A stretch of DNA of 54,053 nt from Candidatus Bathyarchaeia archaeon (GCA_050012255.1 JBEKHN010000016.1:1-54053), one strand, 5' to 3'; counted from the first letter of the stretch, positions 433-35,584 are shown. Notes: generated by a model not told the origin, from the sequence alone. Made by a program: numbers and translations.

Positions 433-1731
433 TCAGCAGTCATAGTGATGATTAAAGTTGTGCGATAATATTAACGCGTCATAAATGTCTATTACACCGT
501 CATAGTTCAGATCGGCACGTTGATCCCAATTGGAATCTCCATGCTTCGAGCCGAAGGCTGCTGAAAGGATGTTGGAGTCGTAGATATCCACAATGCCATC
601 TGCGTTACAGTCGCCGCGACCACGGTAATCTACGGTGTTTTGGAATATTGCCATCAGTGCTGGTTGTTTTGGATAGCCACTCGTGTTCCATGCTTGCCAG
701 AATTCTTGGAAGGTGTTGCACGGAGTTGTGTGCATTATGTTCCATATGTGTGTGAACCCGTCTGAGAATGTGTCGTAGCCATCATTGTGCGAGTCGTAGA
801 TGTCCAATAAGGCGCCTGCAACGCGACCCTCGACCTCATCACCGTTATCCCAGCCTGAAGTATACCAGGTTGGGGCTTCAAGATCAATTGATTTACCAGT
901 CGTGGCGTTTATTCCAAGCACTAGATTCCCCTTGTTAAATACTGCTAACGGGAAGAAGTTGGCCCAGCCTTCAGCCCAAGCCGTTGTCGAATTGCTACGC
1001 AGATTGATGTAGTGTTGCAGCATTGATGGAGGAATGAATCCATAAAGACTATTCATGACGTGATGACCATACTCATGAAGGATTGTGTCAGGCCACCAAC
1101 ACGCCCAGTCAGGCAGGTCTATTGTCCCATTTGTCCAGTACTGTGGCCAATTTCCGTAAGGCCAACGAGCTGTCACCATCGGCGTCTCATAGCCCGTTTG
1201 CGTTTTTACGTAGTTCCACCCAGCCACAATACCACAGTGATAGGAAAAGACGATCCAAGCTCCGATCTGATCCTGAGGCACACCACTTAGCGAAAAGTCC
1301 ACACGGGAACCATCTGTAACGTTGTACCATGTTCCCCAGCCAAAATCGTATATAGTGCCAGTACCGTCAGTTACTGCTACCGCCGAATTCCAAGTATAAA
1401 TAAGTACCACTATGTCTAATCCGCCTCCATCTGCTGGATCTGAATTCAATATTAGACCAGAAGTGAAGTTCCCATTTGCATCTGTAAAGTATTCGTTGTT
1501 CCCATTTACATCAGTGAGTCTTCGAAGCCCGGCAGGATCTGCATCGAATATTCGGACTCTCCCAAACACAGTTGGTCTCAATGCTCCATTGTTATCCCAA
1601 TATTCGTAATGACCATGGACAGTGATATATCCGGTTTGAATGTTCAAATTCGGCAATGTTCTTGGCCCAACGTTGAAAAATGTGGAACAAACAAATAGTA
1701 CGATAACCAGGGGAATTGATTTTTTCTTCAC
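433..1731 (-). CDS. secreted zincin-like metallopeptidase with C-terminal dockerin
   Basis: Likely GTG start at 1731 (KKK + hydrophobic signal); HEYGHH zinc motif followed by AWAEGWA; duplicated dockerin loops GDCNADGIVDIYD / ADLNYDGVIDIYD. Confidence 0.8.
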   Translation of the reverse strand: MKKKSIPLVIVLFVCSTFFNVGPRTLPNLNIQTGYITVHGHYEYWDNNGALRPTVFGRVRIFDADPAGLRRLTDVNGNNEYFTDANGNFTSGLILNSDPADGGGLDIVVLIYTWNSAVAVTDGTGTIYDFGWGTWYNVTDGSRVDFSLSGVPQDQIGAWIVFSYHCGIVAGWNYVKTQTGYETPMVTARWPYGNWPQYWTNGTIDLPDWACWWPDTILHEYGHHVMNSLYGFIPPSMLQHYINLRSNSTTAWAEGWANFFPLAVFNKGNLVLGINATTGKSIDLEAPTWYTSGWDNGDEVEGRVAGALLDIYDSHNDGYDTFSDGFTHIWNIMHTTPCNTFQEFWQAWNTSGYPKQPALMAIFQNTVDYRGRGDCNADGIVDIYDSNILSAAFGSKHGDSNWDQRADLNYDGVIDIYDALILSHNFNHHYDC

Positions 1732-1802
1732 TTTGTCCCCTTTTGCACTTTTTGTTCTTCTACGAATGTAAATTTTACTGTAATCGGGAAAAATGAGAAA
1801 AA

Positions 1803-2423
1803 TCAAAGTGAACCAGTTGTGACATTGATGGGCAGCCCCGGCAGAAATGGCATCTGACCTGAAGGAGCAATGGGATTATGTGATACTTGAACATCATTCT
1901 CAAGAACTGATATCCATATTCTATCTATTGTAATATAGGTGAAGCCTTGCAGTGCCGGTGTAGACCAGGATACAGTTGCTGCTATCCGAGCATAACCGAC
2001 TTCAACAGCCTTTATCCTTTGTGTGAAAATCATCGAGACATTGGCTTTTAAGTCACCATTCCACACGACCTTTGTGGTCGTTGTGTTTTCGCCAATAAAG
2101 TCAATTCCTGTTGGCCACTCGCTACTCACCTGCAACAAGTCAAATTCTACGACGACATTGGACGCGTCACATGTTGACGCAACAGCAACTGTTAAGTCAC
2201 CTTCACTACCCACTCCCAGAGGTACTGTGAGATTAGAGATAAACGCCTGCACGTCAAAAGAGCCAGACGGCCATCCAGGAGGCAGCAGAGGGGGAGAACC
2301 AGAGCTAGAAGGTGTTGTTGCTTTTCTTGGCAAGGGCGCTAACACAATAGATGTGATAACCAGGCTTGCAACTATGATACCAGCCAGTCCAGAAATTCCC
2401 AGCTTCTTGCTTTCGCAGGTCAC
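1803..2423 (-). CDS. membrane-anchored protein (N-terminal TM, Pro/Ser linker, beta-rich domain)
   Basis: 206 aa ORF; hydrophobic N-terminus then TTPSSSGSPPLLPPG linker. Confidence 0.7.
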   Translation of the reverse strand: MTCESKKLGISGLAGIIVASLVITSIVLAPLPRKATTPSSSGSPPLLPPGWPSGSFDVQAFISNLTVPLGVGSEGDLTVAVASTCDASNVVVEFDLLQVSSEWPTGIDFIGENTTTTKVVWNGDLKANVSMIFTQRIKAVEVGYARIAATVSWSTPALQGFTYITIDRIWISVLENDVQVSHNPIAPSGQMPFLPGLPINVTTGSL

Positions 2424-2494
2424 TCCTTATCACCGACCGTATAGTTTGCATTCGACTTATATAAAATAACGTTTTTATACATTTGTATAAAGAG

Positions 2495-2941
2495 TTATAC
2501 ACTATCTTTTTGACGCAACAAACGAAGTGTTTCATACCAGAAAATGGCCGAACCGATAACGGCCAGAACAAGCGCAAACACGCTGTAAAAGCTAACCTCT
2601 CCAAACCTCACAACGATGTAGAGCAGAAGGGTAGTAAACATCGTAGCGTAGAAGAGGTACCTTGGGAGCAGAAAAGGGCCGAACCTCATAAACTGCTTAA
2701 GAATACCCACCTTAACCTCTCTAACCAGGCAATATTCGCCATGTTCATTCTTGACCAACCCAAGTTCCTCCAACTTCTCAAGATGATAAGCCGCCAACCT
2801 CGGACTAGAAAAGTGTAAAGCCCTCTGCACTTCTCTAACACCCACAGTATTAGGTTCAGACTTCAACAAGTACCAATACACTTGAAGAGTCTTTCCTTTC
2901 AACTTCCCCTCAATCTCTTTCTCTTCCACCAACTGAACCAT
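2495..2941 (-). CDS. winged-HTH transcriptional regulator with two C-terminal TM helices
   Basis: VGVREVQRALHFSSPRLAAYHLEKLEELGLV wHTH followed by two hydrophobic segments. Confidence 0.8.
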   Translation of the reverse strand: MVQLVEEKEIEGKLKGKTLQVYWYLLKSEPNTVGVREVQRALHFSSPRLAAYHLEKLEELGLVKNEHGEYCLVREVKVGILKQFMRFGPFLLPRYLFYATMFTTLLLYIVVRFGEVSFYSVFALVLAVIGSAIFWYETLRLLRQKDSV

Positions 2942-3186
2942 CCAGAATCGCTAGCTCTCCTCTATTCTTTGGTGTCACTAACTACTGTCACAAAAGCAAA
3001 ATATATCAAACTTCCTCTAGTTTTGATCTGCCGCATAACAAAGCTTGAATACAGACGCTCTACTTGTGCGCATAGTTCGATTGTCTATGCGCGCGATTGT
3101 TTTCGATTGTTTCCGTCCGTTCTACCCTTCATAAACTGAAGTTCAAGCGCATTGGAGGTTTTGTATGCGGCCGTTGTACGTCGTGG

Positions 3187-3432
3187 TTCCCGCGCGTGAG
3201 CGGAGTCTGAGCAACAGACATCGTCGACTACTAGCTCCCGACCGACCCGCTGGACGACGTGAACTTGAAGAGGCTGTACGAACTGCAGAAGGATCCACGT
3301 TACAAAGACCCTTTGTGGTGCAGAGAGATCAAGACTTTTATGAAAATCAAACGGAAGGCGGAGCAAGAGGCGTTCAGCAGATACGGCCTACCATGCATCG
3401 TGGACGAGTACCTGCTGGACAACTCGAAGTGA
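3187..3432 (+). pseudogene. top6A: decayed 3' fragment of DNA topoisomerase VI subunit A
   Basis: Frame starting 3202 reads [69 protein letters not shown], resembling the Top6A C-terminus; in-frame stops at 3208 and 3232; no 5' part. Confidence 0.8.
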
Positions 3433-3592
3433 CAAAGTGAACCAGCGCCACTTGACACGCCCTTATCTTATACATTCAGGGAAAACGAAGGCCTTCTCGT
3501 CACGGCTTTCATGGCAGGGCACGCCTTTAGCGAAAGCATAAAATAACTGTGTATCTTTCTATCTGGGAGCATGTTGGAAGGAATGGACTGGA

Positions 3593-3793
3593 ATGAGTGA
3601 GGAAGGCGGCTTCGGGATAGGCTTGGCTGAAAAATTCTTCGGCCTGATAATCTTTGTTGTGGGTCTTCTTGTTTTGTACTACACCGTCACAAGCGCGTCG
3701 ACTTTGGGCGCGTTCACGGGTTTCTTCAGTTTTCTGTGCGTTGTCCTCGTGGTGGTAGGTCTAGTTTTGATGATAGCCAAGACGACTGAGTAG
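3593..3793 (+). CDS. small two-TM membrane protein
   Basis: 66 aa, two hydrophobic helices, ATG start. Confidence 0.7.
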   Translation: MSEEGGFGIGLAEKFFGLIIFVVGLLVLYYTVTSASTLGAFTGFFSFLCVVLVVVGLVLMIAKTTE

Positions 3794-3794
3794 G

Positions 3795-4121
3795 CTATTC
3801 TCTTCTTTCAACAACTATCTTGCAGTTCGTGGCTAGAGCAGCTATGACGCCTAAGGCTGCAAGCCAAGGAGCAATGACGGCGCCGATGACTCCGACAGTG
3901 GCAGGTATTTCGAGAAGAACTTTCCCGTTCACGTCCTTGACGATTATCCTGGTCACGTTTCCTTCGTGAAGCAGCTCCTTAACCCTTTGAATGAGGGTGT
4001 CAGAAGAAACCGTGAACTCTTCTCGCGCGACTTTGGTGACCTTCGCCCCGCAAACGGTGCAGAACTTATCCTCATCGGTCAACTTCGCTCCACACTTCGA
4101 GCAGTACGGCAAACTCTGCAC
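3795..4121 (-). CDS. zinc-ribbon + DUF4342-like protein
   Basis: CSKCG...CTVCG then VKELLHEGNVTRIIVK...LEIPATVG. Confidence 0.8.
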   Translation of the reverse strand: MQSLPYCSKCGAKLTDEDKFCTVCGAKVTKVAREEFTVSSDTLIQRVKELLHEGNVTRIIVKDVNGKVLLEIPATVGVIGAVIAPWLAALGVIAALATNCKIVVERRE

Positions 4122-4217
4122 TCCTCAGATGAGCATTTATTAGGGTAATGGTTTATTAATTTTCAGCGAACAGTCAGAAAGCGGCTTGTTCGGCGCTGGT
4201 GCAGGAAGAAGATTAAA

Positions 4218-5999
4218 ATGCCGATTCGTCAACCAATCGTGTGCGTTCTCGGACACGTTGACAGCGGCAAGACTTCTCTTCTGGATAAGATCCGTAAGAC
4301 AAGCGTTCAGGCCCGCGAAGTCGGCGGAATCACTCAGCACATCGGCGCCAGCTTCTTCCCAGCTGAGACTCTAGCTCAGCTGGTGGGTTCCCAGCTCTCC
4401 GTAGTCAGGGGCGAAATAGAAATCCCGGGCCTACTCATCGTGGACACACCGGGACACGAGGTTTTCACGAACCTTCGCAGAAGAGGCGGCAGCGTCGCAG
4501 ATATAGCCATTCTGGTAATCAACGTTCTCCGAGGCCTTGAAGCTCAAACCTACGAATGCATCGAGATTCTTAAGGCCCGGAAAACTCCGTTCATAGTCGC
4601 AGCGAATATGATTGACCGCATACCAGGCTGGAGGTCCCAGCCAGACACTCCCTTCTCTAAAACGTATCCGCTGCAAGACCCCTACGTCAGGGAGGACCTG
4701 GACAACAGAATATACGACATCATAGGCACATTTTCTCGGTTGGGGTTCAAAACAGACCGCTTCGACCACGTAAGAGAATTCACTACTACTGTAGCAGTAG
4801 TGCCGACTAGCGCCAAGACAGGCGAGGGCATAACCGAACTCATCATGGTGCTCATCGGACTTGCACAGCAGTACCTCAAGAAGCGTCTGCAGACCACTAA
4901 AGGCCCAGCAAAGGGCACGGTTCTAGAAGTGAAGGAGGAAACTGGACTCGGACTAACCCTCAACACCATAATCTACGACGGTGTGCTGCAGAAAGACGAC
5001 CTGATCGTCGTAGGCGGCAAAGAAAAACCAATAGTAACACGGACACGTGCGATTCTTGTCCCCAAACCGCTGGACGAGATCAGAGACCCCAGGGACAAGT
5101 TCTCCTCGGTCGACTCTGTTTCTGCCGCGGCTGGAGTCAAGATAGTCGCGCCTGACCTTGAAGGAGTCTTAGCAGGCGCAACTCTGTATGGTGTTCCTAA
5201 AGGTGCCGAACCAGAAAAGTATGCCAGATTGATCACTGAGGAAATTGGAAAAATCAGAATCTCAACGGACATCGACGGAGTTGTCGTGAAGGCAGACACG
5301 CTTGGCTCACTTGAGGCGATTGCAGATATACTCAAGCAGAACAAGGTGCCCATCCGACTGGCAGATGTTGGAGACATATCGAAACGAGACGTTGTCGAAG
5401 CAGCCGTCGTGAAGGAACACGAACCCCTGTACGGCGCAATCCTAGCCTTCAACGTCAGAACCTTGCCCGACGCGGAAGAAGAAGCCAAAAACAGAGGCAT
5501 AACGATCTTCGCAGACAGAATAATCTACCATGTGATAGAGAACTATCTTGCATGGTTCAAAGGAAAACGCGAAGCTGGACTCGAGGAAGACTTCGACGCC
5601 CTCGTCAAACCCGCCAAACTTAGAGTTATGGAAGGCTACGTGTTCCGAAGAGCCAAACCCGCCATATTCGGCGTCGAAATCCTCGCAGGAAACATCAAGT
5701 CCAAATACGGGCTCGTAAGAGCTGAAAACGGCGAAGAAATCGGCGAAATCCAGCAGATACAAGAAAAAGGAGAAGCCCTTTCAACCGCCGGACAAGGAAT
5801 GCAGGTAGCAGTCTCAGTCGACAAACCCATTTTTGGAAGACATATATTCGAAAAAGACGTGCTGTACGTCAAAGTCCCTGAAAAGCACGCCAAAGCGCTG
5901 CAGGCAAAGTTCACAGAAAAGCTGACTCCAGAAGAGCTTGAAGCACTTGGCGAGTACGTCAACCTCATGAGAAAGAAAGTGCCCTTCTGGGGAGCATGA
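4218..5999 (+). CDS. infB: translation initiation factor IF-2 (aIF5B)
   Basis: GHVDSGKT, GITQHIGA, DTPGHE motifs; 593 aa. Confidence 0.97.
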   Translation: MPIRQPIVCVLGHVDSGKTSLLDKIRKTSVQAREVGGITQHIGASFFPAETLAQLVGSQLSVVRGEIEIPGLLIVDTPGHEVFTNLRRRGGSVADIAILVINVLRGLEAQTYECIEILKARKTPFIVAANMIDRIPGWRSQPDTPFSKTYPLQDPYVREDLDNRIYDIIGTFSRLGFKTDRFDHVREFTTTVAVVPTSAKTGEGITELIMVLIGLAQQYLKKRLQTTKGPAKGTVLEVKEETGLGLTLNTIIYDGVLQKDDLIVVGGKEKPIVTRTRAILVPKPLDEIRDPRDKFSSVDSVSAAAGVKIVAPDLEGVLAGATLYGVPKGAEPEKYARLITEEIGKIRISTDIDGVVVKADTLGSLEAIADILKQNKVPIRLADVGDISKRDVVEAAVVKEHEPLYGAILAFNVRTLPDAEEEAKNRGITIFADRIIYHVIENYLAWFKGKREAGLEEDFDALVKPAKLRVMEGYVFRRAKPAIFGVEILAGNIKSKYGLVRAENGEEIGEIQQIQEKGEALSTAGQGMQVAVSVDKPIFGRHIFEKDVLYVKVPEKHAKALQAKFTEKLTPEELEALGEYVNLMRKKVPFWGA

Positions 6000-8885: not shown

Positions 8886-11276
8886 CTAGGTGTATTGGAG
8901 GTTTTGTATTCGGCTGTTGTAGGTGGTGGTTCCCCAGTAGAAGGTGGATGCTGTCCAGTTGTAGAGGCGGATGTAGGAGGCGAACGTGTAGTAGTACACC
9001 GTCCACGTTGCCGCTTGGAGGGTGGTGGCTTGAAGTTGTTCAGTTGTGAAGGTTGCGCACAGGTTCCAGCCTGACCCGCCGACTTGCACGTAGACGCGTA
9101 TGACCAAGGAGTCTGTCTGCTGCAGGGCTGTTTGGGCCACTGAGACCGTGTTGCTTTGTAGGCCCGAGCCACTGCTCCTCCCCACCAGGGCCTTCGGCGT
9201 TCCCGTTTGACCGTCAAGGCTTATCTCCTGTTCAACGCCGTTTGAGTGTCGGACCCAAGCTCTTATGCCCCAAGAGGCCCCGTGTCCGCTTCCGCCTTGC
9301 GTGACGTAGGCGCTGCTGGTTGACTCCGGAATGTTCAGGACGTAGGCGCCTAGGCCGTTGACGGTTTGGGTGTCGCTGCGCATGTACCGCCCGTAGTAGA
9401 CCGTTACGGAGCCGCTTGACACGCTACAGGCTATTGGCTCGGCCGTGCTGTTTCCCAGCTTGGCGTCTGTCAGTGTCAGAGAGGTGGTTCCCGGCTGCAA
9501 CGCTTGGAATGTCAGCGTTACTATTGTCATAGATCCGTTGAATGACGACGCCGGGTAAGTGGCGGTCTGACCTTGCCAGTAGCGAGAATATGTGGCGTTG
9601 TAGTTGGCTTCCAAGCCCGGACCAAAGGTCTGCGTATTGTTCTGCCACTCCGTCGGAGTTTGGACAACGACGTTCGTGCAGTTAAGCACATTACTGTTCC
9701 AGTAGAGCTTGAACTCCCATCCGAATAAGTCGGTAGCACTGGTGACTTCTACGTTCACCGAGAATACCTCGCCCTTGAACATGTTGATCTGGCTTGGGTC
9801 CACGAGGACAACAGAGGCTCCGGCGGTGGCGGCTAACATTCCGCCCTTAGACGACATACGGCCTGATAGTAGATCGTTTATGTTCCAATTGAAATGTGAC
9901 CCAAGTACGATTGCATCGTAGATATCGATTATCTGCAATCCCGTTACACTATCTGGACTGGTGATGAAATTGGCGTCGGGGTTGTATCCTGTCTGGTTTT
10001 CCAGTTTACCAAAAGAACCCGATAAGAGGCAAGCATCATATATGTCGACTATGCCGTCACCGTTAACGTCGCCTAACAGTACTTTGGCTTGAACCGTGTC
10101 GTTCGTGAGCTGGTTGTCCGAGGGGTTCATGTCGAAGACCGTGTCAATGAGCAGGTTTGCATAGCCGGTGATGCTGTAATTACCAGGGTTCAGGGTGTCC
10201 GTTTCGTTCCAAACAAAGGTGTGGTTATAACTCCCACCTAATCCTAGAATAGCGTCCGCCGTGCCTATGTTTCTGGTATCGCTTGCGTTGTTGACGTTTG
10301 TTCGGTTCAGGCCAACCTCAACGTTCAGCGCACCATCGTTATTGTCGGTTCGGCTTACTGTTACATTGTAGCTCATCGAAATGCTCTGACCGTCGTATCT
10401 CATCCCGTGATGATAGACTTGAAAAACAGAATAATGAGGCGGAACTGGATCGACACTGGTAACGCTTATACTGACTGGATATTGTGATGGGACGACGCCG
10501 GGATTCCATATGTATACAGAACCACCGTCTATTAAGACGTCTACTCCGATGGGCACGTATCCTGAGTCAAGTCTTTCCCACGTTGCAGCGTGGCTACTGC
10601 CGTCCAGACCCACCCAGTATTGCTCGTGGAAGTAGAAGTTGAAACTAGGCGTACCTCCAATCCCATCTGCATGGTTGACTTCCTCATAGTCTGTATAGTC
10701 AACATAAGCCGTATTGTTAATGAACCGAGTTAAGTTCAAGTAGTTTCCGCCAGTGGGCGCGTTTTGGGACCAGATCACTGTTCCGCCTTCGGAGAGAGTG
10801 AAAACTGCGGTGAGGTTTTGAACGGTGATGCTGACTGCATATGTAGACCCCATGGACAAGGTCATCTCGTTATGGTATAGTGTATCGTTCAGGGGATAAT
10901 ATGTAGCACCTCCCAAGGGACCGGTGGTCCACGAGTAAGTCAACCCCCATAGACCGTTGTAATAAGTATCAAATCCAATTTGATCGTAGCTACCGTTACT
11001 ATCATAAGCTGAAAGCAGTATACCGTAGTTTTCATCTGAATTTGGCGCGGAGCTGGGAATGGTAATGCTTGTGTTGATGCTCCTAGCTTGCTGGGTACCA
11101 AATGACGAAGGGCAATTGCTCCCGCATTCCCAATTGGTTGAAGTATCCCCTACTCTTGGTGGTGACCAATGTGAGAAACTCGGATCTGCACGAACATGAA
11201 CCATTAGTTGAGGCATAATAAGCGAGAATACAACGAGAAAGATAAAAACAACGATTTCTGGCCGCGTTTTCGTCAT
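8886..11276 (-). CDS. secreted multidomain protein: N-terminal beta domain, CARDB-like, dockerin, cohesin, C-terminal beta domain
   Basis: Signal peptide; GDVNGDGIVDIYD dockerin (~9890-10073); cohesin-like FSVNVEVTSATDLFGWEFKLYWNSNVL...NGSMTIVTLTFQA...GTTSLTL (~9395-9820). Confidence 0.85.
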   Translation of the reverse strand: MTKTRPEIVVFIFLVVFSLIMPQLMVHVRADPSFSHWSPPRVGDTSTNWECGSNCPSSFGTQQARSINTSITIPSSAPNSDENYGILLSAYDSNGSYDQIGFDTYYNGLWGLTYSWTTGPLGGATYYPLNDTLYHNEMTLSMGSTYAVSITVQNLTAVFTLSEGGTVIWSQNAPTGGNYLNLTRFINNTAYVDYTDYEEVNHADGIGGTPSFNFYFHEQYWVGLDGSSHAATWERLDSGYVPIGVDVLIDGGSVYIWNPGVVPSQYPVSISVTSVDPVPPHYSVFQVYHHGMRYDGQSISMSYNVTVSRTDNNDGALNVEVGLNRTNVNNASDTRNIGTADAILGLGGSYNHTFVWNETDTLNPGNYSITGYANLLIDTVFDMNPSDNQLTNDTVQAKVLLGDVNGDGIVDIYDACLLSGSFGKLENQTGYNPDANFITSPDSVTGLQIIDIYDAIVLGSHFNWNINDLLSGRMSSKGGMLAATAGASVVLVDPSQINMFKGEVFSVNVEVTSATDLFGWEFKLYWNSNVLNCTNVVVQTPTEWQNNTQTFGPGLEANYNATYSRYWQGQTATYPASSFNGSMTIVTLTFQALQPGTTSLTLTDAKLGNSTAEPIACSVSSGSVTVYYGRYMRSDTQTVNGLGAYVLNIPESTSSAYVTQGGSGHGASWGIRAWVRHSNGVEQEISLDGQTGTPKALVGRSSGSGLQSNTVSVAQTALQQTDSLVIRVYVQVGGSGWNLCATFTTEQLQATTLQAATWTVYYYTFASYIRLYNWTASTFYWGTTTYNSRIQNLQYT

Positions 11277-14713: not shown

Positions 14714-17458
14714 CTAGTCGATCTTGTAGTTTGCTTTCCCTTTTTCATTTATGGCAGGCATGGTTATGAGGAATCGGACTCCTTCGCCGGGTTGACCTGT
14801 TTCCTGTACTGCCCAGCCATAGACTTCCATCATTTTCCTGGTGAGATACAGGCCGTAACCGGTGCCTTTTCCGATTCCTTCCTTGAAAAGGTCGAGTTTC
14901 TCATCAAGAGTTATGCCCACGCCGTCATCTTCATAAACGAGTCTAAGTTGGTCTTCGCTTTTCTCGTAACAAATTCTGATTCGGGTAATCTTCTTCCCGT
15001 ACTTCAATGAATTATCGACAAGATTGTAGAAAAGCTCTCTTAAGAGAGAGTCAGCCAGAAGCTGTAAACCATGACACTCGTTCGTCACTTTTACGCCGTG
15101 CAGGTCGGAAAAGAGCGAAACAGCCTCGTTAATGGTTTTCTCTACACCTACGTACACTAACTCTTCAGCACCCAACATCTCGTAAGCTCTTGCAAAATCG
15201 AAAATCCTCACCGCTTGCTGAACAGCTGTTTCTATCCCCGCGAGATATTCCAGGACTTCACTGTTTGCAGGCAGCTTCTTCTTCGCCAAGTAGGCGTTCC
15301 CCACAACTGCGGAGAGCTTGTTTCGAACATCATGCCGACTCAACCTGCCGACAACGCGCAGTTTTTCGTTCATCGTTTCCAGCCTTTTCAGCGTCTCTCT
15401 CAACCCTTCCTCCGCCTTCTTCAGCTGAGAAATGTCCTTGTAAACCGCTGTGTGGCTTATGACTTGACCTTCAACGACTATGGGAGCCGTCGAAAAGGCA
15501 ACCGGAATCAGAGTCCCATCTTTCCTTTTTCTAACGGTGTCCTCATGATACGTCTCTCCCTTACTAGCCCTTTCGTCGAACATTCTGGCCTGTTCCATTC
15601 TGTCCATTGGCACTATCGTGTCGTTGACGTGTTTGCCCCTGACCTCGGCTAGAGAATACCCGAAGAGCTTGGTGAAACGCGGATTGATCTCTAAGATGTG
15701 AAAGCTTGAATCCATATAGACCATTGCCTCAGGATTGTCCATGAACAGTTTCTCAAACTTCTGTTGACTCTCCCGAATTTCCTGCGCGTAGGCTTCCAGA
15801 TTCTTAGAATATTCCAGTTTGATCATTGCAGTGGCAGCGTGCGACGCCAAGATTTCAAGGAGTTCCTGATCTTTTTCGTTGAAAGCATTCCATTCATTGC
15901 TTTCCACGTTTAGAACTCCAAGAACTTCGTTCCCAACCTTTATGGGCACGGCGAGTTCTGAGTGAATGTTTTCTCCGAATTTGACATAAGCCTCCTCTTC
16001 ACTGGTATCTCGAACGAGAATAGTCTCACCTGTCTTTGCCACTTTAACCGTCACACCTCTGTCCCCATCCATTGGCAGGGTGACTGTGAAGTCCTTGGAG
16101 CGTCCTCGATTTTCCACTAGGCGGAGATTTTTTCCTTCTATTACGAGAAAGTCGGCGAATTTGAATCCCAGAGTTTTCTGTGCAGCGTCTAGGGCCAGCT
16201 CGCAGATTTCTTGCACGCTGTTTGCCATGTTTAGACTCTGACTGTAGTTGTTCAAAGCTGAAAGGCTTCTTTCATAATGTTTCCTTTCTGTAATGTCCCT
16301 GTACAACCCCACAGTTCCGATTGTTTTGTCTTCAAACGTGATGGGAGCAACGGAAATCGACACCGGAACCAGGGATCCGTCTTTCCTCTTTCTAACGGTT
16401 TCGTGATAAAGACATCCTTCTAAGGACGCTCTGTCCAGCATTTCTGCCTCTTCAATCTTATCGTTCTGCACTACAACATCGTTAACGTTTTTTCCCTTAA
16501 CCTCATCTAATGAGTAACCAAAGAGATCCGTGAATCGCGGGTTGATGTCTGAAATGCAGGAATTTGGGTCTGTGTAAACAGCCGCTTCAGGACTATCCAT
16601 GAACAGTTGTTTGAACTTCTCCTGGTTCTCCCGCAACGCTCGTTCGACTTTTTTGCGTTCGGTGATGTCGACGAAGCTTTCCACCATATACTTGTGGCCT
16701 TTCCAGGTCATCGTCACAACAGTCTTAAGAATCGGAATTCTCCCGCCGTCAGCTCTTAACAACACGCGTTCTGACTTGTCTAACGCCTGACCCAAATCAG
16801 TAATTGGACATTCTCCCTTTTCAGCTGGACAGACAAAGTTGTGGCACACTCTTCCGATGACATCCTCCCTCGAAGCGCCTATCGCTTCCAGTGCATTGGA
16901 ATTCACGTCCATGATCTCATGCGTCTCTGCATCTATGACTAGAACCCCTGTGAAGATGGAAGACAGTATTGCTTTCAAATAGTCTTCACTCGCTCGCAGC
17001 GCCTCCTCTCTTTTTCTGCCCTGAACGACTTGGAATACGCTGTGCGCCAGTTCACCGTACACTGTTTCTGGATCGCCTACTTTGTCGAAATATCGGTCTG
17101 CGCCAAGGTTCAACGCCTTGATCGCAACTTCCTCTCTGCCTTGCCCAGTGAAAATGATGAATGGAATGTCGTTTCCAGCGTCCCGCAGGTCTTTCAGAAA
17201 CTCGAGACCGTCTTTCCTCGGCATCGCGTAGTCGCAAATGACCACGTCGTACCTCTCGTTCTTCATTTTTTCGACAGCTGCATCAACAGATAATGCAGTG
17301 TCCACCCGAAGTTTGCCCTGCAGCTCCAGACACTCCTTGGCGACCTTCAAACAGCAAGAATCATCGTCCACATGTAAAACATGCACGCGCTTCGCATCAG
17401 TCAGATTCAGGAGTACTCCAGTTGAATCAACTTTCTGTTGGATAGTTGGCTCCGTCAT
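14714..17458 (-). CDS. hybrid sensor histidine kinase (REC-PAS-PAS-GAF-PAS-HisKA-HATPase)
   Basis: VLHVDDD/CDYAMP receiver, PAS repeats, RHDVRNKL, NLVDNSLKYG, DDGVG, GTGYGL; start uncertain (17458 or 17482). Confidence 0.92.
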   Translation of the reverse strand: MTEPTIQQKVDSTGVLLNLTDAKRVHVLHVDDDSCCLKVAKECLELQGKLRVDTALSVDAAVEKMKNERYDVVICDYAMPRKDGLEFLKDLRDAGNDIPFIIFTGQGREEVAIKALNLGADRYFDKVGDPETVYGELAHSVFQVVQGRKREEALRASEDYLKAILSSIFTGVLVIDAETHEIMDVNSNALEAIGASREDVIGRVCHNFVCPAEKGECPITDLGQALDKSERVLLRADGGRIPILKTVVTMTWKGHKYMVESFVDITERKKVERALRENQEKFKQLFMDSPEAAVYTDPNSCISDINPRFTDLFGYSLDEVKGKNVNDVVVQNDKIEEAEMLDRASLEGCLYHETVRKRKDGSLVPVSISVAPITFEDKTIGTVGLYRDITERKHYERSLSALNNYSQSLNMANSVQEICELALDAAQKTLGFKFADFLVIEGKNLRLVENRGRSKDFTVTLPMDGDRGVTVKVAKTGETILVRDTSEEEAYVKFGENIHSELAVPIKVGNEVLGVLNVESNEWNAFNEKDQELLEILASHAATAMIKLEYSKNLEAYAQEIRESQQKFEKLFMDNPEAMVYMDSSFHILEINPRFTKLFGYSLAEVRGKHVNDTIVPMDRMEQARMFDERASKGETYHEDTVRKRKDGTLIPVAFSTAPIVVEGQVISHTAVYKDISQLKKAEEGLRETLKRLETMNEKLRVVGRLSRHDVRNKLSAVVGNAYLAKKKLPANSEVLEYLAGIETAVQQAVRIFDFARAYEMLGAEELVYVGVEKTINEAVSLFSDLHGVKVTNECHGLQLLADSLLRELFYNLVDNSLKYGKKITRIRICYEKSEDQLRLVYEDDGVGITLDEKLDLFKEGIGKGTGYGLYLTRKMMEVYGWAVQETGQPGEGVRFLITMPAINEKGKANYKID

Positions 17459-17747
17459 CAGCACCGATTTTCCTATTCGCATACATAAGGAATATCGAAC
17501 ACGTTTCTTAGGAAACACGTTGCATAAGACAGTTGTGAATACAGAATCAATAATTGAAAGAAAGACGATTGGCGACTCATCTGATACTTTGCTGCAACTC
17601 TTCTGAATGAAAAGCAAGCGATGAATCGAGAAGACTAGGCCGCGCTAGGTTGCGGATGAATCGTATGTCTTAATCTTCCCTTTCACACTCGTGAGAAAAC
17701 TTTAATTCTCTGACGGTTTTTTGTGATAAAGAAACAGAGGAAGAATA

Positions 17748-18809
17748 TTGGCCGGACTTGGTCAACTGAAGCTTGCAATGGGAACAAGCATATTTTTGGT
17801 GGCCTTCATTTTCGCCACGTTCCTAGCAGCAATAATGTTTATCGTCCAATTGTTCGTCGCGGACATAGGTCTATCCATTTGGCTAATCCTCATTTTGGCT
17901 CTTCCAATCGTTTTCATCCTGTTTCAGTACCTCATCGGACCAGCTCTTGTCAGAATGTCAACCCACCTGCAATACTTGAAGCCTGGTGAAAACCCTTGGC
18001 TTGAATCCACAGTAAAGGAACTGGCAGACAAGAGCAGAATACCGATGCCGAAACTCGCCGTAGTGCCCGACAAAACGCCCAACGCGTTTGTGTTCGGAAG
18101 AACATCGAGCAGCGCAACCCTCGCGGTCCACGAAGGACTACTTAAAGACCTGAACGAAAACGAGGTTAAAGGCGTAATCGGACACGAACTAGGACACTTG
18201 AAACACAAGGATTACATCGTCATGACGGTGCTTTCAGCACTGCCGCTAGTCGCCTATCTTATCGCAAGAGGAACAACAGAAGCAGCGTTGATATCAGGAA
18301 GGTCAAGACAAAAAAACGAAGGCGACGTAGGAGCAGCTTTGATCGTAGTCGGAATCCTTTCCTACGTAGTCTACATAGTCTCACTGCTCTGCGTAATGAG
18401 ACTTAGCAGACTGCGAGAACACTACGCAGACGCCTACTCAGCCTACGTGACAAAGGCACCTAGAAACCTTGAAAGCGCCCTGACGAAGATCACGTACGGA
18501 CTCTCACTTTCACCAAAAGCACCGTCCGGCGTAAGAGCCTTCTACATAAGTGACCCCTCGCTGGCCAAACAAGAGATGCAGGAGATAGCGGACAAGAAAG
18601 AAGAGTACGACCTGGACCATGACGGAGTCTTGGACGAAAAAGAATTGGAACTTGCAATGGAAAAAGAAGCGAAATCCACTTGGAGGACAATAAACAGCTG
18701 GTTCTCAACGCATCCGCCAACCTTCAGGCGGATAATGCTGCTACGCGAAATAGACGAAGAGATGCAAAGCGGAAAATACACAGCTGACCACATCTACATG
18801 CACGTCTAG
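17748..18809 (+). CDS. htpX: zinc metalloprotease HtpX (M48)
   Basis: PNAFVFG, HELGHL, SRLREHYAD, STHPP. Confidence 0.92.
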   Translation: MAGLGQLKLAMGTSIFLVAFIFATFLAAIMFIVQLFVADIGLSIWLILILALPIVFILFQYLIGPALVRMSTHLQYLKPGENPWLESTVKELADKSRIPMPKLAVVPDKTPNAFVFGRTSSSATLAVHEGLLKDLNENEVKGVIGHELGHLKHKDYIVMTVLSALPLVAYLIARGTTEAALISGRSRQKNEGDVGAALIVVGILSYVVYIVSLLCVMRLSRLREHYADAYSAYVTKAPRNLESALTKITYGLSLSPKAPSGVRAFYISDPSLAKQEMQEIADKKEEYDLDHDGVLDEKELELAMEKEAKSTWRTINSWFSTHPPTFRRIMLLREIDEEMQSGKYTADHIYMHV

Positions 18810-28968: not shown

Positions 28969-28994
28969 TGGTTCTGACCGCTGCCGACGTTGAA

Positions 28995-30091: not shown

Positions 30092-30137
30092 GTTTATGAG
30101 TTCTGACTGGTAGAGGTTAGATGGCAAGGGTGATCAT

Positions 30138-30491
30138 GTGCATAGACGTGTCAATCCGCGTGAAGCAAGACGCATGATGCAACGCATGGGCATGAACATG
30201 GACGCGGTTGCGGATGTTGAACAGGTTGTCATAAAAACAAGCGTTAAAGAGATCACTATCGAAGAGCCTGAAGTTGCGGTGCTTGAGGTGCAGGGCCAGA
30301 AAATCTTTCAGGTGACAGGCGGCAAGATCACTGAGAAAGCCACAGAGCGTAAGCCCTCGGGAATAGCCGAGGAAGACGTAAGACTCGTGGCCGACCAGAC
30401 CGGCAAAAACCCAGATGAAGCCAGAAGAGCCTTAGAAGAAAGCGGCGGAGACCTGGCCAAAGCAATTCTTCTATTACAGTCAAAATTCTAG
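30138..30491 (+). CDS. nac: nascent polypeptide-associated complex protein
   Basis: RRMMQRMGM, UBA-like EDVRLVADQT...GDLAKAI. Confidence 0.92.
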   Translation: MHRRVNPREARRMMQRMGMNMDAVADVEQVVIKTSVKEITIEEPEVAVLEVQGQKIFQVTGGKITEKATERKPSGIAEEDVRLVADQTGKNPDEARRALEESGGDLAKAILLLQSKF

Positions 30492-30717
30492 CCTTCGATC
30501 TTTTTACGCAGAAGTCAAACTCGCGAGCTTCTCACAAACTGCGGCGCCTCTAGCCGATGGATTCAAAAACAGTTGTTGCAGAGAAGAAAGTTGAAGAAAC
30601 CATAAAGAACATACTTGCAGACTCATTTACCGTCCGCGCGCGGAATGAAAGGTAGTGAGGTTCCGTTTAGTTTAAGTTTACTTGAGCTCAATATGCTAGG
30701 CGAGGTCAGATGCGCGC

Positions 30718-31632: not shown

Positions 31633-31657
31633 TGGGTACTGTAATTCATCAAAACCA
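31612..31657 (+). repeat. 46-bp direct repeat, left copy (pfkB 3' end and stop)
   Basis: 44/46 identical to 41608-41653. Confidence 0.92.
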
Positions 31658-31851
31658 GCGCGCATGCTTGTTCCTAAATTCTGTTCAAGAGGGAGGCATG
31701 ACGTTCTCCGATGGTTACTGTCACGGTTCGAGGGCGTGCTTGCGTGCTCACACCCTCCCCCCGGGGATGCTATATGAGCCAAATATGGTTGAAGAGCAAA
31801 ATGAGTAAAGCAAGCTACTTCCCGAAAGAATTTAGGAACACGCTAGCGCGC
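31658..31851. mobile_element. MITE-like element, 194 bp, 25-bp terminal inverted repeats
   Basis: GCGCGCATGCTTGTTCCTAAATTCT ... AGAATTTAGGAACACGCTAGCGCGC (22/25); no convincing TSD. Confidence 0.55.
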
Positions 31852-32173
31852 CAAGCGAGAGGGTTGTAGTTACCCGCTAGGTTTTTTTGCAGAAAGATCA
31901 CAGACCTAGTAGGTAGTGACATTGACTTCCCTACGTGCAAGGCGCCCGGTTGCGGGGAACCCGCGGGCAAGGAACCGTTGCTTTTTGCAGGTTCGCAATA
32001 GCCAACGACCGTAATATGGCACTTTTGAAGTTTTCCTGCACTTGTGCGCCATTTTCTGTTTGTAAGTGATTGCGAGCAGTCAGCGCTGAACAAATGAATT
32101 GCACACGCGGCAAGCCAAGACGTGCTGTCGACGTTTTCCTTGAGAATGGACCTGAACTGAGAAAAAGGGCGCG

Positions 32174-35100
32174 CTATGGAATGTGTTGGTTGAAGTGGCC
32201 TGCGAGTATTATGGCGTCGTAGATGTCAACAGTGCCGTCGCCGTTTATGTCCGCGTTGGGGTTCCACTTTGTACTGCCAGGGCTGGAGTTGAAGGCGCTA
32301 GATAGTTTGATGGCGTCGTAGATGTCAACTGTGCCGTCGCCGTTGATGTCGCCTGGGATCGTCACGACGACCCTGAGGGAGCGGTTGTTGTCAGAAGTGT
32401 CCGCCTCGCTTGCAACGGGGCCTGCTGTGGCTGATACGGTGTAGTTACCCTTGGCACAGTCCGCAGCGTTCCAAGTTATCGTCAGCGTCGTGTAGTCTCC
32501 TTTTGACAGGCTAACGGTCTGCTGGGTTATGAGCGTTGAGTTGACGACCACGGTCAGGGTGAACGGTTCGTCGTAGGTGCCGAGGTTCAGGATTGTCAGG
32601 CTTATCTGTAGCACGCTCATCTGCGGCGCGTAGGACTGTCCGATAACGGTCTTTGACACGACAAAGCTTGCTATTCCGATGTTGTGCAGGCTGAAAGGCT
32701 TCACAAGAGGATAGTAGTCCGTGTTGTTCGTAGCGACGACGTAGGGCGTGTTCCAGATGCCTGAACTATCATTTTCAGTGGCGTTCGGATACTTTGTTAG
32801 GTAATCGCTCCAGTAGTTGCCGCCACTCGGGTAGCCGTCGTCCCAGACGTTTCCTGTTGAGTTTGACATGTTCAGTGTGAAGTTGCTGTTGATGAAGTCG
32901 TTGTGGAAGAACCTGTTGTTGTTTGAGTTGGTTATGTTTATCGCGACAACGTTGTAGGTCATTATGTTCGCGTAAACGATGTTGCCGCTGGACTGTAGGT
33001 TGAGGCCGATGCTGCTCAGGCTGATCATGTTGCCGGTGATTGTGTTGTTGGATGTTGAAGAGGTCAAGCTGACGGCGATGTTGTCGTTTTCGAATATGTT
33101 ATTGTAAACAAGGTTGTTGGAGGCGTTGGAGCCTTGGAGGGCAACTCCATTTTGATTTATGAGAGACATTATGTTGTCGTAGATCTTGCAGCCGCTGGCT
33201 CCGTTGACGAGGATGCCTTGAGCCCAGCTGGTTATCGTTATTCCAGCAATAGTCGACCCAGATCCACTGGGAACTATCGTTATGGCGATTCCGCTTCCGC
33301 CGCCGTTGAAGGTTGGTTCACTGCCTAGTCTGCCAAGAATGGTTAACGTCTTATTGATTACCAAAGACTCATTGTAGATGCCCGGTGCGACTAGAACGAT
33401 GGCTCCTAGGGGAGCAGCGTTGATAGCCGCCTGCACCGTCGCATAGTTCTCCGTCCTGACGATTTCTCCAAATGCGTAAAGAGTATGGTCTGCTGAACCT
33501 ACGAAGACCATGCCGTCGGCGATCGCAGGGGAAGAATAAACATAGCTGCCTGTGGTGTAGCTCCAAACCAGAGCCCCAGTGACAGCATCCAAACAGTAAA
33601 CCATACCATCGTATGATCCCACGTAAACCCTACCACCAGAAACAGCAGGAGAAGAGTCCACCCAGTTTCCTGTGGTGTAGTTCCAAACCAGAGCTCCACT
33701 GACAGCATCCAAACAGTAAACATTATGATCACTTGATCCAACGTAGACCTTGCCACCAGCAACAGCAGGAGAAGAAATAACAAAGCTGCCTGTGGTGTAG
33801 TTCCAAACTAGGACCCCAGTAACAGCATTTAAACAGCAAATTCTGCCATCGTATGATCCCACGTAAACCCTACCACCAGCAACAGCAGGAGAAGACCAAA
33901 CATAGCTGCCTGTGGTGTAGTTCCAAACTAGGGCTCCAGTGGCAGCATCCAAACAGTAAACATTATGATCATACGATCCCACGTAAACCCTACCACCAGC
34001 AACAGCAGGAGAAGAAATAACAAAGCTGCCTGTGGTGTAGTTCCAAACTATAGCCCCCGTAGAAGCATCCAAACAGTAAACATTATGATCCTCTGCTCCC
34101 ACGTAAACCCTACCATAATCGACAGCAGGAGAAGACCAAACATAGCTGCCTGTGGTGCGGCTCCAAACCAGAGCCCCAGTGACAGCATCCAAACAGTAAA
34201 CCGTGCCATCATCTGATCCCACGTAAACCCTACCACCAGAAACAGCAGGAGAAGAGTCCACATAGTTGCCTGTGGTGTAGTTCCAAACCTCAGTCCCAGT
34301 AGAAGCGTTCAAAGCGTAAACATTTTTGTCGAACGACCCGATGAAAACTATGCCGTCAGCAACGGCAGGCGAAGAACTCGTTATGTTACCTGTCGTGTAG
34401 TTCCACATTGTGTGGTTTGTTTGGGGTGCTGAGCTCTCCGTGTAGCCTGTGTGCGTGAGTTCGCGGTGGAACATGGGCCACGGATATCTTGTTTGTGGAC
34501 CGGACGGCGAGAAGGCGTAGACTCTCCCGTCGTATGAAGCCACGTAAACAAAACCGCCACTGACAGCAGGAGAAGAATATACGTAGTCTCCTGTCGTGTA
34601 GCTCCATAAGCATGCTCCTGTGTAGGCATCCAGAGCGTAGACGTTATGATCGTCTGAGCCCACGTACACGACACTGCCGCTAACAGCGGGAGAGGAATGG
34701 GCGTTGCTGCCATGTGTAGTGTAGCTCCAATTTGGGGCTCCTGTAGAAGAATTCAAAGCGTAGATGTTCGCTGAGCCAACGTAAACAAGGCCGCCACTGA
34801 CAGCAGGAGAAGAATAGACAGCAAAGTCGCCCGTTAAGTGACTCCACTTTAGGGCTCCGGTGGTTGCGTCCAAGGCATAGATGTTATCGTCTGCTGAACC
34901 CACGTAGACGACGCCGCCACTGACTGCAGGTGAGGAATAGACGAGGCCGCCAGTCGTGTAGTTCCATTTCAGGGCTCCGGTAGTCGCGTCGAAGGCGTAC
35001 ACCTTCCCGTCCTCAGAGCCCACGTACACGACACCACAACTGACAACAGGGGAAGACTCGATGTAGCCGCCAGTCGTGTAATTCCATTTCAGGACTCCCG

Positions 35101-35584
35101 TGGCCGCGTTCAAAGCGTAGAGGTTCCGATCGTCTGAGCCAACGTACACGACGCCACCACTGACGGCAGGAGAAGAGTCCACATAGCCGCCCGTCGTGTA
35201 GTTCCATTTCAGCGTTCCAGTAACAGCGTTCAAAGCGTAGAGGTTCCTATCTTCTGAGCCAACGTACACGACGCCACTACTAACGGCAGGAGAAGAGAGG
35301 GCCCAATCGCTTGTTGCGTATTTCCATCTCAGCGTTCCATTAGCGGCATCCAAGGCATAGATGTTCCCATCGCGTGAGCCAACGTACACGAAATCGCCAC
35401 TCACGGCAGGAGAAGAATAGACCAAGTCGCCTGTCGTGAAGTTCCAGGTGAGTTCAAGTGGCGGTGTTACGTTCTGCGTTGTCCCCGTGTGCTCCGGGTT
35501 GAAGCGGAACATCGGCCAGTCCGTTGAGGGTTGAGCGGAGGCTGGATGAATGAGCATCGCTTCGGCCAGACTCGCAGCGATCAA
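32174..35584 (-). CDS. surface protein: two PQQ-like beta-propellers, parallel beta-helix, CARDB-like, C-terminal dockerin
   Basis: Two WPMF-led arrays of 40-aa SSPAV.GG.VYVGS.D repeats; GGNYWSDY; GDINGDGTVDIYD / ADINGDGTVDIYD. Confidence 0.9.
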   Translation of the reverse strand: MIAASLAEAMLIHPASAQPSTDWPMFRFNPEHTGTTQNVTPPLELTWNFTTGDLVYSSPAVSGDFVYVGSRDGNIYALDAANGTLRWKYATSDWALSSPAVSSGVVYVGSEDRNLYALNAVTGTLKWNYTTGGYVDSSPAVSGGVVYVGSDDRNLYALNAATGVLKWNYTTGGYIESSPVVSCGVVYVGSEDGKVYAFDATTGALKWNYTTGGLVYSSPAVSGGVVYVGSADDNIYALDATTGALKWSHLTGDFAVYSSPAVSGGLVYVGSANIYALNSSTGAPNWSYTTHGSNAHSSPAVSGSVVYVGSDDHNVYALDAYTGACLWSYTTGDYVYSSPAVSGGFVYVASYDGRVYAFSPSGPQTRYPWPMFHRELTHTGYTESSAPQTNHTMWNYTTGNITSSSPAVADGIVFIGSFDKNVYALNASTGTEVWNYTTGNYVDSSPAVSGGRVYVGSDDGTVYCLDAVTGALVWSRTTGSYVWSSPAVDYGRVYVGAEDHNVYCLDASTGAIVWNYTTGSFVISSPAVAGGRVYVGSYDHNVYCLDAATGALVWNYTTGSYVWSSPAVAGGRVYVGSYDGRICCLNAVTGVLVWNYTTGSFVISSPAVAGGKVYVGSSDHNVYCLDAVSGALVWNYTTGNWVDSSPAVSGGRVYVGSYDGMVYCLDAVTGALVWSYTTGSYVYSSPAIADGMVFVGSADHTLYAFGEIVRTENYATVQAAINAAPLGAIVLVAPGIYNESLVINKTLTILGRLGSEPTFNGGGSGIAITIVPSGSGSTIAGITITSWAQGILVNGASGCKIYDNIMSLINQNGVALQGSNASNNLVYNNIFENDNIAVSLTSSTSNNTITGNMISLSSIGLNLQSSGNIVYANIMTYNVVAINITNSNNNRFFHNDFINSNFTLNMSNSTGNVWDDGYPSGGNYWSDYLTKYPNATENDSSGIWNTPYVVATNNTDYYPLVKPFSLHNIGIASFVVSKTVIGQSYAPQMSVLQISLTILNLGTYDEPFTLTVVVNSTLITQQTVSLSKGDYTTLTITWNAADCAKGNYTVSATAGPVASEADTSDNNRSLRVVVTIPGDINGDGTVDIYDAIKLSSAFNSSPGSTKWNPNADINGDGTVDIYDAIILAGHFNQHIP
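33490..34330. repeat. intragenic 120-bp tandem repeats (~7 units)
   Basis: TGTGGTGTAGTTCCAAAC and AAACAGTAAA recur with exact 120-bp period. Confidence 0.9.

Follow-up and report, generated by a model that had tools for sequence, protein, structure and literature searches.

Three dockerin proteins of a Bathyarchaeia contig as probable members of a genome-wide, non-cellulosomal cohesin-dockerin network with a species-specific interface

We analyzed a 54,053-bp stretch of DNA, the window in the following, which comprises one whole contig (C16) of the 2.35-Mb, 38-contig genome of a Candidatus Bathyarchaeia archaeon (labelled G000). It encodes three proteins with dockerin modules: a metallopeptidase-like protein, a protein that carries both a dockerin and a cohesin, and a protein built of β-propellers and a β-helix. 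All six dockerin repeats read D-I-Y-D, which places Ile-Tyr (I-Y) at positions 10 and 11 of the calcium loop. We consider it likely that these proteins belong to a non-cellulosomal cohesin-dockerin surface network that extends over the whole genome and employs an I-Y interface of the species' own. They form no private trio, as their genes are only three of 34 dockerin open reading frames (ORFs) in this genome, which also contains 16 cohesin ORFs.

Bathyarchaeia are uncultured archaea that abound in sediments, soils and peat. The original prediction, made from the DNA alone, took the host to be archaeal, and the genes beside the three dockerin genes confirm this: they include aIF5B, thermosome, TFE-alpha, aTrm56, NAC and AFOR, and a ThrRS gene with an archaeal editing domain. 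The thermosome is 95-96% identical to that of two assemblies, one of them a Candidatus Bathyarchaeia, and 74-88% identical to that of dozens of others, nearly all of them Bathyarchaeia/Bathyarchaeota. The same housekeeping genes separate the dockerin genes from one another, which are unlinked in that sense.

The window dockerins consist of two tandem repeats, in each of which a 12-residue calcium loop, with acidic or amide residues at positions 1, 3, 5, 9 and 12, is followed by a helix; the middle protein, which carries both dockerin and cohesin, deviates from this only in its second loop. Matches of the first and third protein to Dockerin_1 (PF00404) exceed the gathering cut-off of 22.9 bits, and the three dockerin proteins with six DIYD repeats that had been read from the DNA are all present. 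In the six-frame ORFs of at least 100 amino acids (aa) in this genome (855,630 residues), DIYD occurs 53 times, compared to 2.9 times expected from composition, and 50 of these occurrences lie in cohesin/dockerin ORFs. Across 31 aligned dockerins, positions 10/11 are occupied by I-Y in 45 and by I-F in nine of 62 repeats. The proposal that the three proteins share one recognition code thus stands insofar as all six repeats have I-Y, but the pair is not special to them: it is found on nearly every dockerin of the genome and therefore does not single out the window proteins.

This became apparent in a whole-genome scan, which the original prediction had suggested and in which we combined a six-frame hidden Markov model (HMM) search for Dockerin_1 and Cohesin (PF00963, cut-off 24.1 bits) with loop-pattern and BLAST searches. 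For dockerin, the HMM returned 31 matches in 30 ORFs, 28 of them above the cut-off, and the loop pattern added four dockerin-like ORFs; for cohesin, it returned 16 matches in 13 ORFs, which the window cohesin and two ORFs found by BLAST complete to 16. Nearly all of these ORFs have a hydrophobic N-terminus, and gene clusters lie at 87.8-94.2 kb of contig C8 and at 88-93 kb of contig C6. A multi-cohesin scaffoldin and anchoring proteins, as known from cellulosomes, are encoded outside the window: there is a three-cohesin adaptor with a dockerin of its own, a two-cohesin protein, and a set of single-cohesin proteins with predicted membrane anchors (Table 1). The components required for a surface complex as originally envisaged are therefore encoded, namely cohesin proteins with predicted anchors, a three-cohesin adaptor and 34 dockerin proteins. 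As a separate observation, a dockerin-PKD protein (C1:373365-376175) ends in a hydrophobic-basic tail that starts with PEFP and is encoded 1.8 kb from a gene of the exosortase/archaeosortase family (C1:377995-378807; PF09721, 140 bits). The two may constitute a PEF-CTERM sorting pair that serves part of the network.

In clostridial type I dockerins, as exemplified by Clostridium thermocellum and C. cellulolyticum, the residues at positions 10/11 touch the cohesin and vary from species to species, and the symmetry of the repeats permits a dual binding mode. A similar pattern emerges from the relatives of our archaeon. Three genomes of the same genus share its pair: I-Y occurs in 23 of 24 repeats in G103 (best 13 of 35 matches), in 28 of 39 in G109, with I-F in four (best 20 of 47 matches), and in six of ten in G102, with I-F in three (best 5 of 10 matches). 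Three further genomes of the genus have other pairs, namely I-L in 37 of 40 repeats, with Asn at position 9, in G107 (best 20 of 28 matches), M-R in ten and M-K in five of 28 in G104 (best 15 of 35 matches), and heterogeneous pairs, with no I-Y in 11, in G101 (best 6 of 16 matches). Outside the genus, I-Y is found in none of 52 loop-like matches, which derive from 28 loci in 18 Bathyarchaeia genomes. Likewise, other pairs (IK/IK, IL/IL, YL/YL, GR/GR, MT/MV, AG/AK and others) are found in orthologues of the metallopeptidase-like protein (45-65% identical) and in those of the cohesin protein, and these pairs are often alike in both repeats, i.e. the pair changes symmetrically on orthologous cargo. 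Given these other pairs in sister species and on orthologous cargo, the shared I-Y code appears to be the species' own docking code. Within a genome, positions 10/11 are homogeneous, and between species they differ, as would be expected of specificity residues; this agrees with the specificity-setting role that had been ascribed to them.

It appears very improbable that the dockerin-like repeats are instead calcium-binding modules for stabilization or adhesion, which do not pair with cohesins and in which D-I-Y-D is an inherited motif with no role in recognition. Such modules could account for the fact that dockerin ORFs far outnumber cohesin ORFs, for the same-genus genome G101, with 16 dockerin matches and only two cohesin matches, and for the high DNA identity of the core dockerins, which indicates recent copying. 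Yet positions 10/11 switch as a set between sister species and orthologues, often alike in both repeats, while the calcium ligands remain fixed, and this is hard to explain by a purely structural motif. Moreover, cohesins co-expand with dockerins in four of the five same-genus genomes examined, and both modules are found on many proteins.

The middle protein was expected to carry a cohesin at about 9395-9820, and a cohesin module is indeed found there by both HMM and structural match. A Pfam scan of the whole protein (E-value 0.01) returned neither the dockerin nor the cohesin, so that domain-wise scanning was needed. In an AlphaFold model computed from 30 homologues, the predicted local distance difference test (pLDDT) score is mostly ~85-94 over the cohesin. 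The modelled module is a nine-stranded β-sandwich, as in known cohesins, and aligns with 6kgf_A at Z 16.4 (135 residues, root-mean-square deviation (rmsd) 2.2) and with both Archaeoglobus fulgidus 2xdh and C. thermocellum 1ohz_A at Z 15.6, while its sequence identity to solved cohesins is 9-16%. By sequence, the closest solved dockerin is that of Bacteroides cellulosolvens (2y3n_B; E-value 8e-14, family profile). A complex prediction for the cohesin (residues 478-640), two calcium ions and the dockerin of the third protein, made with separate alignments and without controls, scored 0.12, compared to a mark of 0.32, and speaks neither for nor against pairing.

Covariation provides a candidate for the cohesin residue that faces dockerin position 11, Lys606 in strand 8. 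Residue 606 is K or N in all 12 orthologues in which position 11 of the protein's own dockerin is Y or F, and I, L or V in all four orthologues in which that position is L. Among paralogues, it is K in four of four copies in G000, and K in three and N in one in G103. P0138, one of the four L-type proteins, has the C-terminal architecture of the K-type proteins, which suggests at least two independent changes. We regard a contact between Lys606 and position 11 as a lead, not as proof. Among sister genomes, close copies of the window-type cohesin (P0002) were confined to G103, whose dockerins likewise use I-Y, and the lead can thus not be extended to the I-L and M-K genomes. The three-cohesin adaptor family was tried as a further covariation test and proved uninformative: it has two K-type sequences, which are close kin, and with 65 separating columns, phylogeny and function are inseparable.

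We propose the following arrangement. Secreted cargo, mostly propeller and β-helix proteins, but also some peptidases and two peptide-type binding proteins, would end in a two-repeat calcium-loop dockerin, and these dockerins would plug, with calcium, into anchored cohesins on the cell surface, either directly or via adaptors. The cohesin partners would be of three kinds: membrane-anchored proteins, multi-cohesin adaptors with their own dockerin, and a cassette family, to which the middle protein belongs. Ile-Tyr at positions 10/11 would be the species' version of the interface, held by selection in this genome and exchanged throughout the set in sister species. Most of the dockerins can probably engage one and the same group of cohesins, and probably through either repeat (dual binding mode). 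As nearly all dockerins have one interface, the cargo probably competes for the same cohesins.

The cassette family has three members in this genome, in which a dockerin, a cohesin (77-82% identical) and a C-terminal β-sandwich (88-90% identical) follow different N-terminal parts. These proteins would both dock and be docked upon, thereby extending the network. They might also bind themselves or each other, as an intramolecular latch or in head-to-tail chains or a surface lattice; dockerin and cohesin lie only ~20 residues apart in one chain, the same cassette occurs three times behind different cargo, and the cohesin is highly conserved among orthologues. We nevertheless judge this to be quite unlikely, as a paralogue of this cohesin type with 49% identity (C1:234042-235334) is predicted to be membrane-anchored and has no dockerin, which fits a role in anchoring other proteins. 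No named family was found for the C-terminal β-sandwich, and no fold is assigned to it; its template modelling (TM) scores in the Atlas are at most 0.42, to CBM6/CsxB-like models. In the two cassette paralogues outside the window (C1:26580-29927 and C2:37194-40487; loci L048 and L056), a ~700-aa N-terminal region without a family match is followed by a PPC-like pre-peptidase domain, and the cohesin of L056 was missed by the HMM scan.

A number of observations speak against the proposed network or call for caution. The assembly consists of 38 contigs, with an estimated contamination of 5%. The anchors are predicted from hydrophobicity alone, and the one tail that starts with PEFP reaches 16.2 bits on the PEF-CTERM model (cut-off 23). 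At 19.3 bits, the dockerin of the middle protein falls short of the cut-off, and its match to PF00404 is confined to the first repeat; the second calcium loop has a seven-residue insertion and lacks the canonical ligand spacing, while D-I-Y-D and the helix are kept. This inserted-loop variant is common to five relatives (P0126, P0127, P0132, P0135 and P0136), the other relatives having a canonical second repeat. The cohesin match is only marginal, with 26.9 bits (E-value 6e-6) when residues 476-640 are scanned alone. The pair counts in the relatives cover only the best-scoring dockerin matches per genome, and the strand-8 covariation is based on 16 sequences with about two independent changes; columns that separate the two types number two of 144 in the cohesin and two of 507 in the non-dockerin domains outside it. 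Finally, there is 83-92% DNA identity among six core dockerins with unrelated cargo, and 83-90% between that of the third protein and those on five unrelated cargo proteins, so that part of the uniformity within the genome results from module copying or gene conversion. By contrast, the dockerin of the first protein has only 51-63% DNA identity to the other dockerins compared; it retains both DIYD motifs with synonymous codon differences, which indicates selection on these residues.

The nature of the cargo bears on what such a network might do. Seven of the 34 dockerin ORFs encode PQQ/BamB-like propellers, two of them together with a NosD β-helix, and another seven encode NosD β-helices without a propeller, two of them with Peptidase_S8. 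SBP_bac_5 (oligopeptide-type) binding proteins account for two ORFs and a tandem C39-like domain just under the cut-off for one; several dockerin ORFs also bear cohesins, and nine have no informative domain. No glycoside hydrolase Pfam family was found in any of the 34, and the expectation of zincin and propeller/β-helix cargo rather than glycoside hydrolases proved correct. Peptidase-like cargo amounts to five of the 34, i.e. the first window protein with its predicted thermolysin fold, the middle protein with its glutamic-peptidase-like fold, two S8 subtilases (C9:56132-59902, 29.7 bits; C4:87723-92855, 17.9 bits and both loop motifs) and the weak C39-like match; one further S8 protein has a cohesin. 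The C39-like protein (C19:4319-6781, locus L079) comprises two tandem ~300-aa domain copies with the motifs 'YTWCGPVA' and 'GHFVTCAG' and reaches 22.9 bits for Peptidase_C39_2 (cut-off 24); it may be a papain-like cysteine peptidase with a duplicated domain.

Could the network be a dedicated extracellular protein-degrading machine, in which peptidases and peptide-binding proteins act together on the surface and propellers and β-helices bind the substrates? The peptidase-like proteins listed above, including the cohesin-bearing S8 protein, and the two dockerin-tagged SBP_bac_5 proteins would fit such a machine, as would the membrane-anchored clostripain-like peptidase whose gene adjoins the third dockerin gene. 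It would also be consistent with statements in PMC6752024, according to which Bathyarchaeota seem capable of metabolising detrital organic matter and protein degradation appears to be of importance to some subsurface archaea. A docking tag, dockerin or cohesin, is found on three of the six S8 ORFs of the genome, but likewise on seven of its 11 PQQ-propeller ORFs and nine of its 18 NosD ORFs; the tag marks large secreted proteins generally and not peptidases specifically. Furthermore, for two of the five peptidase-like proteins, the assignment comes from the fold or from a match below the threshold, with the catalytic site unconfirmed, 14 of the 34 cargo proteins are propellers and/or β-helices of unknown function, and one CBM_4_9 cargo protein and two weak pectinesterase-like matches point to polysaccharides. 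A machine dedicated to proteolysis is hence unlikely. With few peptidases and a dominance of propellers and β-helices, protein degradation is at best one function among several, and the notion of a protein-degrading cellulosome is only partly supported: peptidase-like cargo exists, but it is not enriched.

Of the peptidase-like proteins, that of the first gene was proposed to be a zincin, and its HExxH motif and predicted fold bear this out. Its frame is open up to TTG 1806 (ORF 433-1806, 457 aa, the numbering used for residues here); the most likely start is the GTG at 1731, as in the original prediction, since it is preceded by AAAGGGG and results in a classic signal peptide. About 60 full-length homologues of 400-470 aa are known, all metagenomic 'hypothetical proteins'. 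In 50 aligned homologues, H248 is invariant, while H244, E245 and E279 are kept in at least 90%; E279, in the motif 'AEGWA', is a candidate for the third zinc ligand. The AlphaFold model (mean pLDDT 88.7) has a transthyretin-like sandwich ahead of the catalytic domain, and its best Foldseek matches are thermolysin/M4 peptidases, which occupy all of the top 12 rows (5fxn, E-value 2.6e-7, TM 0.54 by target). Besides the dockerin, no Pfam or NCBIfam family and no curated peptidase family matches the protein. We therefore file it as an unclassified zincin with a modelled thermolysin-like fold and not as a member of M4. A search of genome contigs with this protein yielded 14 pattern matches, none of them confirmed, in a set that may not include the window's own or a near-identical genome.

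The N-terminal domain of the middle protein (aa 45-260) resembles eqolisin/neprosin-type glutamic peptidases in fold. In VIA-align, it reaches Z 15.6 to 8xai_B, 15.3 to scytalidoglutamic peptidase 2ifr_A (183 residues, rmsd 3.5) and 14.9 to neprosin 7zvc, with 182-189 residues aligned, and the aspergillopepsin-2 row (PF01828) of the ESM Atlas has a TM score of 0.66. No sequence match to PF01828 was found in Pfam at E-values up to 10, a PDB profile search with the family profile of the protein returned only dockerins and cohesins and no glutamic peptidase, and hhalign gave a probability of 0.3 for the domain's family profile against the true G1 protein of this genome. Q98 ('SYDQIGF') and E198/E199 ('YTDYEEV') are kept in homologues that bear the domain, and their order is, by eye, that of 'LIQAE' and 'AEWIVE' in the true G1 protein; they are candidates for a glutamic-peptidase dyad. 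The G1 gene itself (C5:109915-110535, minus strand; locus L322:1555-2370; PF01828, 112.8 bits) encodes a signal-anchor, and its HMM match runs beyond the ORF with one in-frame TAA. Homologues of the metallopeptidase-like and cohesin proteins carry the precomputed Pfam accessions PF26607, PF27334 and PF27283.

The expansion of both modules is a trait of the genus. Of 100 other genomes drawn from across the class, 18 have Dockerin_1 matches, none of them more than eight, compared to all ten same-genus genomes, with 16-47 matches in those that are at least 93% complete. In four of five same-genus genomes, there are 15-28 cohesin matches, and the fifth, the near-complete G101, has two. With 34 dockerin and 16 cohesin ORFs, G000 and its genus thus have some of the larger archaeal cohesin-dockerin repertoires counted here.

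Table 1. Features of the three dockerin proteins in the window, and cohesin proteins encoded on other contigs of the genome
Feature	Position	Strand	Basis and remarks
Secreted zinc-metallopeptidase-like protein with C-terminal dockerin	433..1731	-	432 aa from GTG 1731
Dockerin of metallopeptidase-like protein	436..627	-	PF00404, 31.0 bits; two repeats, both DIYD
Predicted thermolysin-fold catalytic domain	622..1284	-	Motif conservation and Foldseek
HEYGH zinc motif	1063-1077	-	H244, E245, H248
796-aa secreted protein (middle protein)	8886..11276	-	Signal peptide, glutamic-peptidase-like domain, Ig-like domain, dockerin, cohesin, C-terminal β-sandwich
C-terminal β-sandwich	8889..9329	-	Common to two cassette paralogues (C2:37194-40487 and C1:26580-29927), with 88-90% identity to their C-termini
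Cohesin module	9390..9821	-	aa 486-629; PF00963 and structure alignment
Lys606 codon, cohesin strand 8 ('DAKLGNST')	9459..9461	-	Candidate contact for dockerin position 11, by covariation
Dockerin of middle protein	9882..10085	-	Canonical first repeat, inserted loop in second; both DIYD
N-terminal domain, eqolisin/neprosin-type glutamic-peptidase fold	10497..11144	-	aa 45-260; structure alignment
1136-aa protein with two PQQ-like β-propellers, NosD-type β-helix and dockerin	32174..35584	-	ORF and Pfam
Dockerin of propeller/β-helix protein	32177..32365	-	PF00404, 39.3 bits; core dockerin class of the genome
Right-handed β-helix (NosD-like)	32795..33433	-	PF05048, 66.2 bits; PF13229, 31.2 bits
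Two PQQ/BamB-like β-propellers	33485..35506	-	PF13570, 481.9 bits; PF13360, 408.2 bits
Three-cohesin adaptor: three cohesins, CARDB spacer, dockerin	C8:88911-90797		HMM
Two-cohesin protein with dockerin-like tail	C23:1705-2886		HMM and loop pattern
Predicted membrane-anchored single-cohesin proteins	C6:91738-92439, C8:90915-92129, C8:92283-93344, C1:234042-235334		Signal peptide, C-terminal hydrophobic helix and basic tail

The gene of the third dockerin protein has an unusual 5' end. Its ORF begins at a TTG, which leaves half a signal peptide, and the 21 in-frame codons upstream (35584-35647, minus strand) encode '...TSKAAAIVVLL', which would complete the signal peptide, but contain no ATG, GTG or TTG; the ATG at 35646 is out of frame. 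Together, these features suggest an assembly indel or an unusual start. Directly upstream, at 35751-39284 on the minus strand, lies the gene of the clostripain-family protein (1177 aa; Peptidase_C11, 119.8 bits), which comprises an InlB B-repeat-like domain and, at its C-terminus, a transmembrane helix with a charged tail. Lacking a dockerin, it is predicted to be membrane-anchored by itself.

Two other neighbours have no evident tie to the docking network. Between the second and third dockerin genes, at 14714-17617 on the minus strand, a 967-aa hybrid sensor with a receiver, three PAS, a GAF and a histidine-kinase ATPase domain is encoded, and a Peptidase_M48 gene adjoins it (17748-18809, plus strand). 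Upstream of genes of the network, a box of the form TAGAA-N5-TTCCA recurs: allowing one mismatch at most and searching from 250 nt upstream to 90 nt inside the ORF, it is found in 11 of 41 cohesin/dockerin ORFs, compared to 18 of 812 other ORFs of at least 300 aa, and is usually followed by 'GAA' and a TATA-like run. Among the window genes, only that of the third protein has a copy (at about 35691, minus strand), which is weak, with two mismatches, and is followed by TTAAAAT. As a promoter box of the three window genes, the motif is therefore not convincing.

A more far-reaching idea, which we offer tentatively and consider less than likely, is that each species maintains a private docking alphabet. 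The 10/11 pair would be rewritten across 20-47 dockerins, along with matching cohesin residues such as Lys606 opposite Tyr, and secreted enzymes and binding proteins would be captured by their producer only. In the present case, these would be peptidases of four catalytic classes and peptide-type binding proteins, which would couple proteolysis to uptake. If true, extracellular digestion would be privatised in crowded peat and sediment communities. The swap of the contact pair from species to species provides a directly testable specificity hypothesis, and the system may hold a ready-made collection of mutually orthogonal docking pairs. In addition, two families of 'hypothetical proteins' obtain a putative function at the fold level, the thermolysin-fold zincin and the glutamic-peptidase-like domain.

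Among known systems, clostridial type I pairs (1ohz, 2vn6, 6kgf) resemble the present one in the cohesin fold (Z 15.3-16.4) and in two-repeat dockerins with canonical calcium loops. Likewise, positions 10/11 are uniform within a species and different between species, the repeats are near-symmetric, and there are adaptor and anchoring scaffoldins as well as gene clusters. By contrast, clostridial cellulosomes differ in their cargo, since glycoside hydrolases are absent here and only one carbohydrate-binding module (CBM) is found, and in their anchors, which here are predicted C-terminal transmembrane or PEF-CTERM-like tails and not SLH domains or sortase signals. Without glycoside hydrolase cargo, the system is not a cellulosome, though it is cellulosome-like in architecture.

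Non-cellulosomal cohesins and dockerins are established in archaea, and archaeal pairs bind specifically, as described in PMC9012536 (Chadwick et al., 2022). This study attributes scaffoldin-like proteins, as well as OppA-like binding proteins tagged with dockerins, to anaerobic methanotrophic (ANME) archaea. Both systems are archaeal, have no link to cellulose, and include scaffoldin-like proteins in which a single dockerin is combined with multiple cohesins, as many as five in ANME and three here. Dockerin-tagged OppA/NikA-type binding proteins there compare with two SBP_bac_5 proteins here, and in either case, the proposed role is to tether functional proteins to the outside of the cell. 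However, they belong to different phyla, the main cargo here consists of PQQ-like propellers, NosD β-helices and peptidases, and no S-layer-domain dockerin proteins were seen in our genome. A per-species residue code and the dockerin-cohesin-C-terminal cassette do not appear in the passages of that article considered here, whose supplementary domain tables may list similar architectures. Titles and abstract openings of the literature on Bathyarchaeota together with dockerin/cohesin or cellulosome mention no such system in Bathyarchaeia, which is a weak negative.

The cohesin of A. fulgidus (2xdh) is similar to the window cohesin in structure (Z 15.6, rmsd 3.2, 133 residues), and in both cases the host is an archaeon without glycoside hydrolase cargo. 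According to the same passages, archaea surveyed earlier had no multi-cohesin scaffoldins (PMC9012536); unlike these, our genome includes multi-cohesin adaptors among its 16 cohesin ORFs, in addition to its 34 dockerin ORFs. To the known archaeal systems, the present one thus adds a genus-level expansion, a species-specific pair at positions 10/11 and two peptidase-like families newly assigned to a fold.

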